DNA from: Octopus sinensis
Lineage: Eukaryota
Reading direction: 5' to 3'
Assembly: GCF_006345805.1 (NCBI RefSeq)
Contig: NC_043014.1
Span: forward strand, 19,406,001 to 19,470,000
DNA length: 64,000 bases
Shown: in pieces, positions 984-58,173 of the stretch
Layout of the letters: the number at the start of each line of letters is the position of its first letter
Numbering within the stretch: position 1 is the stretch's first letter
The notes under the pieces: generated by a model
Databases searched by the model: none
Seen by the model: only the letters and a program-made list of their open reading frames with translations
What the model was told of the DNA's origin: nothing
Position numbers and translations under genes: made by a program

Positions 984-1029
984 TCTTACAGCTGTTTCCG
1001 GGATATTTTATACATCACTTCATCGGAGA
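984..1029 (-). ncRNA. Hammerhead ribozyme-like motif (type I, PLE-type), U4C core variant
   Basis: Minus strand: tct-CCGATGA-a-gtgatgt..atatccc-g-GAAA-cagctg-TA-aga. Stem I tct/aga, palindromic stem III ACAGCTGT, GUA cleavage triplet, one mismatch in stem II. Confidence 0.65.
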
Positions 1030-1346
1030 TGGTGTGAGAAGATGGTTAAGCAATAGTTATTCTAGCTAGGATATGAAATAGAGAGAGAAGTGGAGGAATG
1101 AAAACAGACGTGAGATAGCAGGGATATTGTATCTGCAGTTCATTATTTAGTAGAATGGTATACGTATAAGATTCCTCTACCTTGTAAGTTCCAATAGTAT
1201 TTAAAATTGGTCATTCCAAGCATAGAGTTTGTAAACGGTGTTATTGAATCGAGCGTCTTTTTTATATATACATACTGCGTCATTTCTTGATATCATGTTG
1301 CTTATTTTGATTTTATTCAAATATATATATATATAGGTATATTATT

Positions 1347-1475
1347 TTATTTATTAGGGAATAACATTCCCGGCATCACAGGGGTTCAAATTATTCTCAA
1401 TGAGGAATATATATCTCCTCATTAAGAATAATTTGAACACCCGTGATGCGGGAATTTTTATTCCCTAATAAATAA
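1347..1475. repeat. Imperfect fold-back palindrome (~60-bp arms)
   Basis: ttatttattagggaataa..ttcaaattattctcaatgagga / tcctcattaagaataatttgaa..ttattccctaataaataa, flanked by (TA)n. Confidence 0.8.
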
Positions 1476-2924
1476 TATATATATATATATATATATGTAT
1501 GTATGTATGTATGTATGTATGTATGTATGTATGTATGTATGTATGTATGTGTGTGTGTATGTATGTATGTATATGTATATATTCCGAGTTAAATGCAGCA
1601 CTAGTGTTATAAACATTATCGACCACACTAGCTCAATGTACGTGTTTTGTTTGTTCACTGATCCGATGTTGTACAGCGTTGCTAAAGTGCTATGCCGTAG
1701 CAAACCGGCGAACAAGCAAAGGACAAGGTCTTAGTATGTGCGGTTTTATTATAAACAAACACATGCACGCGCCCGCACATACACACACACACACACACCA
1801 CACACACACACACACGTACACACACACACACATACACAAAACAATTTTCTGCTCTCATTATATTACGTGTATAACGATGTTAAGTGAAATGCAAGTGTAA
1901 TATTGTGTCATGAAATTAGTTTAATTTTATAAAAATCATTCACCAATTATCAAGAGATAGGAAACACACGCTCAGCTTATAAGAGAACTGGTTCATCCAT
2001 ATTTTTTCTATTATCAAACAGCCTAGAGAATGTTATTAACGTTGGTTGAATTCATTATGGGATTTCTTTTCAAATTCTCAAAACCTCTTATAATTGTCAA
2101 ACTAAATTTTTAATGAAATGCTATACACCGTATAAGTTTCTGCGATGTTGAGTGAATGTTGCTGGAATGATATAAAGTTCACTTATTGTTTAACCTGGTC
2201 AGGCGTAATTCTGCTGGCCTATGATCAAAGACAACATTTCTCTTATGTATTCCAGGTGTCATATATTCCGGAATAGATAACCTGAAACTTTTTATATTAC
2301 CGCGGTAAGGTTCAGTTTAGAAATTTGTGAGAAATTTAACTACCATTTCTGTTGTAGCAGTTCAATAAACTGGTGCTAGATTTGGTTGAATTTCTTTCCT
2401 AAAGGCTTTTCTATCTGCAGTGCATGTGTGATTTGCATTAAATCTTGACAATATATTTTTTGCTTTAAAAGCGAGGAGCTGGTAAAATTGTTAGCAAGCC
2501 GGGCAAAAAGCGTAGCGGCTTTTCGTTCTGTTTTACGTCAAATTATACAAAACCAGTGACAGCTTATCATCTTGGAATATTCACGTCCTTGTGTGTGTGC
2601 GCGTGAGAGAGAGAGAGTGATTGATTGATTGATTGATTGATTGATTAGGTGAGTGAGTGAAGGAGGGAGTGCGGGAGTGAGAGGATGAATGGTTGCACGA
2701 GCGCGTCACGATGTCGGACTACTATGTAATGCAGCACCGTATTCATTTTATACATTGCAGTATGATACTTTTCGCGAGTTCGATTCTCGGCGGTGCGTTG
2801 TGTCCTTGAGCAAGACACATTATTTCACGTTGCTCTAGCTCACCACTCAGGTACCAAAAATGTGGAGTACCTGTAGTTCACAGGACCGGCCCTGTCACAT
2901 TCTGTGTCGCGTTGAATCTACTTG

Positions 2925-3420
2925 TCGTATCTGTGTGGTAAAAATCTTGCTCTCCTACCACATGGTTTCAGGTTAAATCCCACTGTGTGGCACCTTGAGC
3001 CAATGCTTTCTGTTATAGCCTCGGATCGACCAAAGCCTTGTGAGTGCATTGGTAGATGGAAACTAAAAGAATCTCGTCATCTATGTGTATATATATATAT
3101 ATATATATATATATTATATATATATATATATATATAATATATATATATATTTATATTTATATATCTATATATATGTATGCATGTATGTATGTCTACATGT
3201 ATGTGTGTCTGAGTGTCCGTGTTTGTTCCCCACCACCAATTGACAACTGGCGTTGCCTTGTTTATGTCCCGGTCACTGAGCAGTGTAGCTAACGAGACCG
3301 AAAAAATAACAACCAGGCTTAGCGAAAGCTACGCACTAGGGTCAGTTCATTCGACTGAAATTATTTTCAAGTCGGTGCACCAGCATGGCCGCCGAATAAT
3401 GAATGAAACAGATAAAAGCT
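2925..3420 (+). mobile_element. tRNA-derived SINE, family B (head + internal microsatellite + tail), decayed
   Basis: ccacatggtttcaggttaaatcccactgtgtggcacc..ggtagatggaaactaaaagaa head, then (TA)n, then tail ending cagcatggccg..tgaaac. Same family as 53220-53773. Confidence 0.75.
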
Positions 3421-3539
3421 CGTAAGTCGCAATGTTAGGCTCTAGAAATTAGAATAACATGTAATCGGACTGTAATTTTGATGACATTAGTCTTTGAAGT
3501 ATTTACCAAGAATTTTGCCCCTAGCCTCTGCCACTCTTG

Positions 3540-54945: not shown

Positions 54946-55967
54946 GGGTATACAAACATACTCTGCCATTACCAACCTTTATGAACATGGTTGCTAGGGA
55001 TAATGACATATTAAGAATAGAAATCCCTGCAACTGCTCTTTAACAATCTCACTCTACTAACCACCCTTGTTAAACAGTTTGTAATCCTACCAAATTTACA
55101 TTTCTTAAATGTCGAGAATTCTAATTAAACATTTCTCTTGTCGATGATACGTTGATTATTCAAAATGTCACTGCAGTTTGGTTATTTGGTTCGCCTGATG
55201 AGTCGAGAATTGCAAGCGTATTGTAAACGTTGTGTAGACTGCATACCCAACAGTACAATGCCTACATCGCAATAAGACTCTTAACAGAACAATTGTAGTA
55301 ATATCAGAAATCCATTCGTCTATATACTTTGCACGTAACAAGTACTCGCGTTGTTGCCTTTTTTCTTGTCTTTTCTTCGTTTTGGGGGGAGGATTAACTA
55401 TATATATATATATATATATGTATGTATATATATATATATAATATATATATAGAGAGAGAGAGAGAGAGAGAGAGAAAGAGAGAGAGAGAGAAAGAGAGAG
55501 AGAGAGAAAAGAGAGGTGGGACTCAAGCATGACCGCAGTTAAATGACTGAAAGAAGTAAAAGGATAAAATAATAAAAGATATATACTCATATATATATAT
55601 ATGTATATATATATATATATATATATATATATATATTATATATATATATATATATATATATATATATATAAATAAAAAATATATATATATATAATTATCA
55701 AATTAGAGAGAAAACCACTATTAGGCAAATCAAACAGTGAAAAACATAAGCCAATACATAAAATTAATTTAAAAATATAAAAGTTAAAAATAAAAAATTA
55801 TTAAAATAATTTAAACTTATCAATTTTATATATATATACAAATATATATATATATGTATGTATGTATATTTTTATATTTATATATTATTTAATTTATTAA
55901 TTAATTTATTTACTTAATTTTTTTCTTTTTAAATATATCAAAAGTATTAAAAGATAAAGAGTAAAAC

Positions 55968-56058
55968 ACTACGATCGTGTCATGGTTGTACCAATTCGAA
56001 TAACAATAATTTAAATTCAATTAACAATTCGAGTTATAGTTACAGTCAATCTTCAGGT
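55968..56058 (-). ncRNA. Degenerate hammerhead motif in a very AT-rich element (about 55690-57110)
   Basis: ac-CTGAAGA-ttgactgta..tacaaccat-GACA-cgatcg-TA-gt. Palindromic ACGATCGT stem III; GAAA mutated. Confidence 0.45.
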
Positions 56059-57230
56059 TAATTGAAATATTTTAAAAATAATCAGAAATATTTAAACAAT
56101 GTTTTTAAGATATAAATAATATAATAATTTTACTTATAATAAACTCTATTATCAAACTAGAAACTTAAATCTTAACAATTATGATTATATCAAAATCGAT
56201 TATAATGTTAAATATTAACCCACCAATAATCTAAAATCGGCAAATAGTCTATATCTAATTACATAATTTTTTTTTTTTAATGACTATTATATATAAATTA
56301 TCAATGAAAATATATAAATATATATAAATATTATAATTAAGATCTAAAATAATCTCTATAAATAAATATAGATGCACATATAATAAAAACATAATAAATT
56401 AATTTTTCATATTTAAAGATGAAATAGCTAATTTCAAAAATACAAACAAACAAACTTAAACGAACTTTCGGAAATCGTATGTAAAATACTTATAGAAATA
56501 ATCATTTCGTAGTTATATAGTATCGAATAAATACTATAAATACTATAAATGTAATTATCAATGGGAATAACTAGCGAATATCAATTCAAAAAGACAATAA
56601 CTAAGTTATGCTATTAAGTTAGACATGGCCTGGACCAATCTTTAGTCGAAACATATCTAAGTTTATCAAAGTTTATCTAATTTTAATTATAAGAAATTTA
56701 AAACTACAATTAATACTATTAATACATGTATATACAAAAGCCTAACTTTAGACACCTCGTATACTTACTATCAAACAACAAATCTATCGCTAAGTAGTAT
56801 CTTACGAATAAACTTAAATTTAATATCTAATAATATAGAAAATTACGATAATTAGATCATTACATAAACAACGATATTTACATAAGGAAAATATTATTAC
56901 ACCAAAGACTTATAAAATATTATAATTTACAATTTAAAGATCTTAAATATAAATAAATACTTATCTTAGCGAGGTTTTGTAATGAACTAAAATTTTGAAT
57001 CAGAAAACGTCTTTACAGCGTTTATAAGAATACTCGTGGTATTACGTTATTAGCAATAAAAGAATAAATTGTTGAAGAATTCATTAAGCGTGAGGAACAA
57101 ATACGCTTTATCAATGTATGTATGTATAAAGTTAATCCAAACATGAATACACAAAGAGAAACACAACAACGCGAGGACGTGGAACAAATATAGTATTATT
57201 GGACGCTCAAGAAAGAAGGAAAGAAGGAGG

Positions 57231-57265
57231 GTTTAACGTTTCGAGCGGAGCTCTTCGTCGGAAAC
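57231..57265 (-). ncRNA. Minimal hammerhead motif, U4C core variant
   Basis: gttt-CCGACGA-a-gagc-tcc-gctc-GAAA-cg-TT-aaac. Confidence 0.65.
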
Positions 57266-58068
57266 ATAGGAGAAGGAAAGATCCAGAGAAGGTGGTGCCC
57301 CAGCATGGCCGCGGCCTGCGGGCTAATACATTTTAAAGGATTTAAGGATTTAAGAAGGGAAGACGGAGGAAAAAAATCGCCAACGGTACACACGCGGTCG
57401 TATATATATACTGACTAATGGGTGTATGTCGATTACTGTGTTGTAGTGTTGAGTAGAACACTGGCAGAGTTTGGGCTACCTGGTGTCATTTGCAGTCGGG
57501 GTATATTTCCGTTGGATCTACCTCATGAACTCTGCAGTGTTATTTGAGATAATAATAGTAACAACAACAACAACAACAACAATAATAATAATAATAATAA
57601 TAATAACAACAGCAATAACAACAACAACAACAATAATAATAATAATAATAAAATAATAATAACAACCATAATAATAATAATAATAATAATAATAATAATA
57701 ATAATAATAATAATTATAATTTCCTAAGTAGCCAGAAGATGGAGTTGGTATTAATCTTCATTTTGTATAACGGTCGTTTTGACCCAACCTGCTACAGACA
57801 ATTTTGCCTGCATATATACACCTTTCCCATCCTTTTTCCAGTATCATTCTTTTGTCTTAAACGCAATCTAGCTCAATCCATCCCTGTCCATCAACTCACT
57901 TCCTCTACAATTTTTTTCTTTTAAAAAAAACAGTTATTTCTCTATATTTACAGATGTTTGCAATTTTTATTATGGAAAGATAATAGTAATTGAAAATTGT
58001 AGCAATGTTTTATTCCCTAACCCAGATGAGCATATAATATATAAAGAAGACACGACTCAATGTATGGG

Positions 58069-58173
58069 TGTACCTGATGAGACCCAGTTGCACAATGGAT
58101 GCAACTCAACATGTTCAACGCAGTCCAACGGATAAGGAACAATAATAGGATGGGTCGAAACAACTGTTGTACA
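58069..58173 (+). ncRNA. Hammerhead ribozyme (type I), canonical core, long loop II
   Basis: tgtac-CTGATGA-gaccca-(64 nt)-tgggtc-GAAA-caactg-TT-gtaca. Its 3' half and tail are repeated inverted at 57720-57786. Confidence 0.8.

Follow-up and report, generated by a model that had tools for sequence, protein, structure and literature searches.

The window analyzed in this study comprises 64,000 nucleotides of Octopus sinensis DNA (contig NC_043014.1, positions 19,406,001 to 19,470,000; genome size 2.72 Gb). It is microsatellite-rich, has a GC content of 34% and contains 14 hammerhead ribozyme (HHR) motifs, which represent 13 insertions and 11 repeat families (A to K), with every motif lying in a repeat family. 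Families C and D are the 3′ ends of Penelope-like elements (PLEs) of the Hydra clade, whose open reading frames (ORFs) with reverse transcriptase (RT) and GIY-YIG endonuclease (EN) are found elsewhere in the genome, and most HHR motifs of the window are likely truncated 3′ ends of PLEs. Family J has a swapped pair at core positions 3 and 8 (G3-C8 instead of C3-G8). This natural G3-C8 family is a new variant, while the overall system is of a known kind. We are reasonably confident of the full picture, in which type I HHRs occur in at least 11 families, two of them truncated PLE 3′ ends and most others likely the same, and in which the G3-C8 motif of family J is predicted to retain partial self-cleavage.

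PLE origin of families C and D and probable PLE origin of E and J

An earlier annotation of the window, made by a model from the letters alone (the sequence-only reading), had linked the HHR motifs to PLEs, and families C and D indeed continue upstream into PLE ORFs. Its statement that no PLE RT or GIY-YIG ORF is visible has to be corrected, as the minus strand at 46152-46304 codes for 51 residues of a PLE endonuclease. This ORF end of family D is 90% identical to the ORF end at another locus (L141; E 3e-27), and the window copy shares 92% identity with that locus over 1.1 kb. In L141, family D runs on into a GIY-YIG ORF, with the HHR located 3′ in sense orientation.

A full element of family C (L131) has HHRs at 2538 and 7128 on one strand, flanking the RT and EN frames, and an inverted copy upstream. 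A second locus (L177) contains an open ORF of 947 aa with the motifs RWK, DKT, YRDD, CxCX5C, CxxC and CxH and, after the linker, a Y-x-G motif of the EN, i.e., a single ORF combining an RT with a GIY-YIG domain at its C-terminus (homologues at E 1e-32). The RT fragment of family C gave 151 matches among the best 150 of 7,404 candidates, with several frames longer than 900 aa. Among close homologues of an element protein, the only one with a name carries the label Octopus (82% identity, covering a quarter of the query). HHR-bearing pseudo-long terminal repeats (pLTRs) are present at both ends, together with an inverted truncated partner and a (TA)n target (L131, L178). The 3′ ends of family C fall into two classes, long and short, each of which is common; the insertion in the window consists of about 380 bp of the 3′ tip, with a long- and a short-tailed copy back to back in (TA)n. 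Inverted truncated partners, as expected by the sequence-only reading, occur at 11 of the 23 family C loci. More generally, copies of the PLE type lie in (TA)n runs, have variable 5′ ends and frequently possess an inverted partner. If transcribed, the 136-bp inverted repeat of family C in the window (41512-41785) would yield an extended double-stranded hairpin in which the HHR is hidden, a possible substrate for A-to-I editing.

Families J and E are probably PLE 3′ tips as well. In one J locus (L220), the C-terminus of a Hydra-type EN is located about 100-130 nt upstream of the HHR, with 10 of 17 homologues matching (best E 1e-12). Copies of family E share more than 1 kb of upstream sequence, and one of them has a decayed endonuclease-like frame. 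Several points weigh against a PLE origin of these and further families. The ORF link of J is seen in one of the three copies for which about 380 nt of upstream sequence were obtained, most J copies begin about 16 nt ahead of stem I, and the link of E to a PLE ORF is weak (E about 1e-5). The Hydra-type ORFs gave no significant match in the local Pfam copy, and their assignment is based on motifs and unnamed homologues. Upstream linkage was followed for six families, A, B, C, D, E and J. Finally, no sense-strand ORF was found for A (30 loci) or B (25 loci) in flanks of 1.5 kb, these loci being the best matches to short queries, so that a parent element could have gone unnoticed.

A second young PLE family, which we take to be Neptune/Poseidon-like, is present in L016 (1700-3141) and L222. 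It has DKG and PKIHK motifs and gave 145 scored matches, many of them with 811-aa frames; a 3′ motif with a TTGAAGA core is seen in one copy.

Motif inventory and chance level

The sequence-only reading was accurate in its coordinates, since all 14 motifs are confirmed at the positions it listed. The final descriptor, revised after the sites had been seen, accepts every Watson-Crick combination at 3-8 and tolerates a single mismatch in the core. In the window it finds 11 matches, ten at previously listed sites and one AT-rich, chance-like match at 56280, whereas 100 local dinucleotide shuffles gave 0.93 on average and four at most. The hit rate in shuffled sequence is thus not similar to that of the window. 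Stricter descriptors gave four matches versus 0.6 (30 shuffles) and five versus 0.03 (200 shuffles). Sites 10118, 28673, 49234 and 55968 fail the final descriptor and were placed in families by homology; they are decayed copies, and other copies of their families have better cores. The core is intact in six of the 14 window copies (41547, 41660, 45492, 58069, 11567 with U3-A8 and 48818 with G3-C8) and non-canonical across the family in three (984 and 57231 with U4C, 31534 with A6U). The remaining five copies are decayed, site 6962 being the fifth.

Chance matches in AT-rich, microsatellite-rich DNA could be suspected, as the descriptor was tuned on the sites, five of 14 cores are broken and folding energies are mostly unremarkable (z-score < -2 for only one of nine motifs, which also counts against our main reading). 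We regard this explanation as already refuted and give it practically no weight, given the excess over shuffled sequence, the multi-copy families with conserved cores, the two-sided covariation described below and the expected position of the HHR 3′ of PLE ORFs. Rfam returned no hammerhead family among the best 150 of 302 matches, which are microsatellite-driven microRNA matches.

The palindromic stem III emphasized by the sequence-only reading is exact for the six palindromes it named and imperfect at 41660, 58069 and 28673. Its strand argument does not stand: 10 of the 14 motifs lie on the minus strand, which is not significant (p = 0.18), and Pfam identified no host-gene exon in 150 of the 152 filtered ORFs.

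For comparison, we took 20 evenly placed 10-kb stretches from contigs C1-C9. They contain three descriptor matches per 200 kb, about the chance level and including one true family copy, and (TA)n runs are 2.2 times more numerous in the window than in this sample. BLAST detects three copies of the 11 families in these 200 kb. The window is therefore denser in HHRs than this sample, in a comparison of a window chosen for its HHRs with a small sample.

Window repeats were found by masked self-BLAST, and ten families (all except F) were searched genome-wide, with 40 candidates scored per family. First-look candidates, which are not copy numbers, amount to 816 for A, 1,776 for B, 525 for C, 2,591 for D, 372 for E, 2,422 for G, 2,166 for H, 629 for I, 802 for J and 1,292 for K. 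The identity of the best copies ranges from 99-100% (C), 96-100% (A), 95-98% (J), 94-97% (K) and 89-93% (G) down to 80-86% (E) and 74-85% (I); therefore, the families differ in age.

Core variants and the G3-C8 pair of family J

Core variants that hold for whole families are absent from the sequence-only reading; they are what makes the set most interesting. Cores were tallied over the fetched copies, excluding those of the window. Because these copies were selected for their similarity to the window copy, and because of overlaps between some loci, the tallies lean towards conservation, which also counts against our reading. The canonical core is predominant in family C (CTGANGA in 85/86 copies), D (CTGANGA in 33/37), E (CTGATGA in 21/33), I (CTGAAGA in 4/5) and K (4/4, with GAAA kept in all four of these other copies). 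Non-canonical cores are CCGACGA (U4C) in 32 of 38 copies of family A, CCGATGA in five of ten copies of G, a U at position 6 (A6U) in all 37 copies of B, TTGATAA (U3-A8) in all seven copies of H and GTGAACA (G3-C8) in 15 of 16 copies of J. A type I HHR core with a 3-8 pair, GAAA, an A15.1-U16.1 pair and a UH cut site is present at the family level in C, D, E, H, I, J and K. The HHR of a third Hydra-type PLE end (L040, about 1800-1870, minus strand) is also U4C (CCGAAGA), and U4C therefore recurs in at least three families.

Apart from the swapped pair, family J is a textbook minimal HHR. Its stem I has 7 bp, and a single extra base precedes stem II, which has 5 bp and begins with G-C; GAAA, a palindromic AATATT stem III and a UU cut site complete the motif. 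By sequence, family I is the closest relative of J within the set. In comparisons with J, the scores of the four I copies are 29-31 for three of them and 21 for the fourth, compared to 12-19 for other families. In addition, the tails of J and I align end to end (score 51 versus a maximum of 42 in 1,000 dinucleotide shuffles; next best C at 41). J would have reached G3-C8 from a C3-G8 ancestor common with family I.

The stems of the motifs differ yet pair, as the sequence-only reading had claimed, and two-sided covariation was found both in the C lineage and in J plus I. In the C lineage, five of 20 pairs change on both sides, 95% of the cells pair and the changes affect all three stems. Among five J and six I copies, the 3-8 pair is GC in five, CG in five and UG in one, a stem II pair is AU in six and GC in five, and one stem III pair also changes on both sides; in family I, the three outermost pairs of stem I are not maintained. 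GAAA and the A15.1-U16.1 pair are invariant in both families. The change at 3-8 counts as a single event that several copies display, and not as five, and the sequences compared are few and related by descent, the shuffle counts not being probabilities. Because the 3-8 pair was kept through two substitutions, the data suggest selection for an active fold in the master of J, and the same selection presumably retained the 3-8 pair in the masters of J and H alike.

Two J insertions on different contigs (L247, L248) share the same inverted junction, and five matches have partners starting at one position. A hairpin-shaped J unit may itself be copied.

RNA reads over family J

Three raw RNA runs, whose organism code differs from that of the best DNA source, were mapped on 48749-48985 and yielded 976-1,398 reads per run, mostly 90-95% alike. 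Copies of family J thus occur in transcripts. Both directions are about equally frequent, and an unstranded library is indistinguishable from read-through on both strands. At the core (48855-48861), no difference of at least 10% appears among the positions listed, while positions of stem II and the loop vary. Loose read ends confirm that stem I is preceded by a common leader of about 16 nt. The reads provide no evidence of cleavage: in the three runs, no pile-up of read starts or ends was found anywhere, including the predicted cut site, which counts against our main reading. For the monomeric linear and circular RNA that marks retrozymes, J was the family examined, with these same runs and in standard libraries that can miss small circles. 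A metagenome scan for the J core gave 29 matches, none of which (0/29) has the rest of the motif.

The retrozyme question and the short families A and B

The sequence-only reading saw the whole set as a non-coding, retrozyme-like system, which is not supported, since the HHRs of C and D end elements with RT and GIY-YIG. In a model built on that reading, most families would be non-coding retrozymes that self-cleave to monomers, are circularised and are mobilised by PLEs, with the window copies as solo monomers. We consider this unlikely. It would suit the size of A, B and J, which are about 190-250 nt long and whose 5′ ends cluster (in B, the distance from the start to stem I is about 62 nt in 22 of 25 copies; the J leader is about 16 nt), and animal retrozymes include solo monomers and stem from PLE pLTRs (10.64898/2026.07.22.740005). 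However, besides C and D being PLE ends, tandem HHR units, the defining retrozyme feature, are absent from the window. Its only long-period tandem repeat (20962-22752) contains no listed HHR, and just two of 130 search loci have a repeat with a period of at least 80 nt over the match. From its layout, the inverted pair 41547/41660 would not supply a dimer partner, because any one transcript contains one sense and one antisense copy. The possibility that copies begin at the cut site was rejected: the ends of copies do not coincide with that site, and for D, E and G the start points of the inverted partners are scattered. Finally, three of the 25 B copies extend further upstream, and therefore a longer B master exists.

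The autonomous PLEs that the sequence-only reading suggested looking for share their tails with C and D, and none was found for A or B in the 30 and 25 loci examined. Only about 130 nt of upstream sequence are common to the copies of A and B once microsatellites are set aside. We rejected family A as pLTR of the neighboring PLE in L016, since this PLE has a different HHR-like motif after its ORF (L222), and B copies beside PLE ORFs in L038 and L040 as linked, since they are antisense and are thus read as separate insertions. The non-autonomous reading may be confined to A and B; their small size and the clustering of their 5′ ends make it likely that they are non-autonomous derivatives mobilised in trans.

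Proposed mechanism

In the mechanism we propose for a PLE origin, the element protein would nick AT-rich DNA (as inferred from parts of PMC11167929 and PMC8557442) and reverse transcription would start at two points of the tail immediately 3′ of the HHR (following the same part of PMC11167929). Reverse transcription would usually stop early, leading to the insertion of an HHR-bearing tip. The RNA template would be uncut at the HHR site, because inserted copies contain the whole HHR, which would fit a slow, dimer-dependent or protein-assisted ribozyme; the HHR might cut only with help of the protein, in line with what was seen of PMC11167929. Individual lineages would vary the core (G3-C8 in J, U3-A8 in H, U4C in A and G, A6U in B). 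Cleavage may matter for the autonomous transcript and not for being copied; it is perhaps dispensable for copying, as suggested by family B, because B has spread with a core predicted to be poor.

Whether the variant cores are still active is weighed differently by two readings. We tentatively propose, at somewhat less than an even chance, that J is a genome-wide natural hammerhead with an exact G3-C8 swap, still self-cleaving as a dimer or with the element protein, and that it forms, together with the U3-A8, U4C and A6U families, a natural series of PLE-tuned ribozyme speeds. The other reading, possible and rather doubtful, holds that the variant cores are dead: chance changes of the masters, including G3-C8, would have been amplified independently of cleavage, leaving at most a protein-binding fold. 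It is compatible with a PLE origin and with the lack of read-end pile-up in J. According to the part of PMC11167929 consulted, PLE insertion in vitro is not impaired when the HHR is mutated, and RNA reads ending at the cut site were absent there. Activity is low for most changes in the CUGA turn (PMC9901934, in part), yet A (U4C) and B (A6U) are abundant. Against dead cores, the 3-8 Watson-Crick pair is kept in two of the four variants (J and H), GAAA and A15.1-U16.1 do not vary in J and I, and the G3-C8 swap is the sole rescuing double mutant of that region (see below).

Relation to known systems

Statements on the cited sources refer to the parts consulted. The C3G/G8C double mutant made in the laboratory partly restores the activity lost by either single change (PMC8495972, PMC11167929) and is the only rescuing double mutant of the region in a full pairwise scan (PMC9901934). 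For natural G3-C8, the literature yielded laboratory mutants only, in a coverage without figures, most subscription papers and one key paper; the sections seen of PMC6765202 and PMC6155905 contain nothing on G3-C8. Natural U3-A8, U4C and A6C are in print (PMC3088659, PMC4209133). PLE hammerheads are slow in vitro and dispensable for insertion (PMC11167929), and a repeat annotation of octopus lists 31 recently active PLE families, with ribozymes unmentioned in the part seen (PMC13282606).

Families C and D share with the Hydra clade, including Hydra-1_Obim of Octopus bimaculoides (PMC8557442), the RWK and DKT motifs, the CxCX5C linker, CxxC and CxH around E and N, and the C-terminal GIY-YIG. 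They also share (TA)n targets, an HHR near the 3′ end and, at the base of stem II, an additional nucleotide or a mismatch. They differ in their longer ORFs (frames up to 947-1,124 aa), asparagine-rich inserts and 3′ untranslated regions of 0.6-1.6 kb. The Hydra HHRs in file S2 of that work are all C3-G8 and none is G3-C8 as in J, and the HHR of Hydra-1_Obim differs from every motif in the window. Like the minimal PLE hammerheads of Cervera and de la Pena (2014; PMC4209133), our motifs are type I with a short stem I, an unpaired base before stem II, a palindromic stem III, nearby pairs on opposite strands and a U3-A8 variant family. That study also reports thousands of solo copies, there ‘probably related to truncated PLEs’; unlike here, G3-C8 and A6U families are absent from its text and octopus is unnamed.

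Non-LTR (long terminal repeat) retrozymes (PMC7229834; 10.64898/2026.07.22.740005) are similar in their type I HHR, small size, proposed PLE origin or mobilisation and solo monomers. They have tandem HHR units, canonical loop-loop contacts and circular RNA, whereas tandem units were not detected here and coding parents exist for at least two families. As far as these sources were seen, the pattern thus matches solo minimal HHRs of truncated PLEs (PMC4209133) and not retrozymes. Natural core variants (Perreault et al., 2011; PMC3088659) include a U3-A8 covariation and a U10.1-U11.1 mismatch, as here, as well as U4C tolerated in vivo in a viroid and a position-6 change (A6C) with low activity, resembling A, G and B. 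G3-C8 is not among the natural variants in that text (figures outside our coverage) and A6U is unlisted; moreover, the variants of the present families are fixed, with candidate copies numbering from hundreds to thousands.

With solo HHRs of truncated PLEs and an octopus Hydra PLE already described, the general finding is ordinary. The C3-G8 pair has so far been established by structure and a laboratory double mutant, and a G3-C8 lineage beside a C3-G8 sister adds comparative evidence for the pair and for selection on an active fold. A set of young families in which some cores are canonical, others swapped and others apparently impaired makes the role of PLE hammerheads testable. If the series of tuned speeds is true, cleavage rate compared with copy number, truncation pattern and autonomy would show the purpose of the HHR. 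Descriptor searches fixed on CUGANGA miss five of the 11 families here, and therefore HHR counts in such genomes are likely too low.

Features of the window

Table 1. Positions of HHR-bearing copies and associated features, counted from the first nucleotide of the window.
Feature	Position	Strand	Remarks
HHR family G	984..1030	-	Core CCGATGA (U4C), stem III ACAGCTGT; stem II partly decayed here
HHR family F	6962..7005	-	CTGATGA; G12A in window copy
Family F inverted tail fragment	7184-7240	+	Partner of 6962 copy
Old decayed copy, family A lineage (site 10118)	10050..10158	-	74% identical to 57231
HHR family H	11567..11615	-	TTGATAA (U3-A8 swap), stem III ACTAGT; starts at (TA)n run
HHR old family I	28673..28717	-	C3U in window copy, C3-G8 in others; nearest relative of J
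Short element family B	31475..31600	+	HHR 31534-31569, core CTGTAGA (A6U)
Family C 3′ tip, young Hydra-clade PLE	41403..41785	both	In (TA)n; long-tailed copy -, inverted short-tailed copy +
Family C canonical HHRs	41547-41637; 41660-41750	-; +	136-bp perfect inverted repeat
Family D 1-kb 3′ fragment, Hydra-type PLE	45283..46306	-	Canonical HHR 45492-45572
Last 51 codons of family D GIY-YIG EN ORF	46152..46304	-	CxxC and CxH motifs
HHR family J	48818..48868	-	Core GTGAACA at 48861-48855 (G3-C8), stem III AATATT
Family J copy	Tail to 48749; inverted tail arm 48867-48978		Predicted cut between 48825/48824
Decayed family B copy (site 49234)	49170..49298	+	Core TTGTGGA
HHR family K	55968..56060	-	CTGAAGA, stem III ACGATCGT, weak stem I; GAAA box mutated here only
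Short element family A	57151..57292	-	HHR 57231-57265, core CCGACGA (U4C)
Family E 3′ fragment	57806..58222	+	Canonical HHR 58069-58173; inverted partial copy 57727-57790

Other sequence of the window

Pfam analysis of 150 window ORFs revealed only transposon domains and two matches below the cut-off. The only hints of host exons are a weak SK_channel match on the plus strand (27851-28054; E 0.004, below cut-off) and a weak CggR_N match. Fragments of non-LTR RTs are located on the minus strand at 61168-61581 and 35442-35639 (Pfam RVT_1, E about 3e-6, below cut-off), and helix-turn-helix fragments of a Mariner (Mos1-type) transposase at 17644-17841 (+) and 49728-49877 (-). A fragment of a long interspersed nuclear element at 9332-9796 (-) has no Pfam match and reads like the RT C-terminus of what we take to be R4/Dong-type elements. 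Two minus-strand frames (39105-39662 and 40959-41345) are related by self-BLAST, have no Pfam match and presumably represent remnants of Helitron proteins.

Two duplications, an 850-bp tandem duplication (96%) at 20962-22752 and a near-identical one of 473 bp (37223-37694 and 38003-38475), could be recent or assembly artefacts; a gap of 100 N bases lies near 46500-46600. Abundant short repeats devoid of an HHR are found at 2776-3078, 12882-13054, 46343-46940, 52679-52871, 53614-53773 and 54717-54883, and ARAGORN made one tRNA-like call at 50199-50293.

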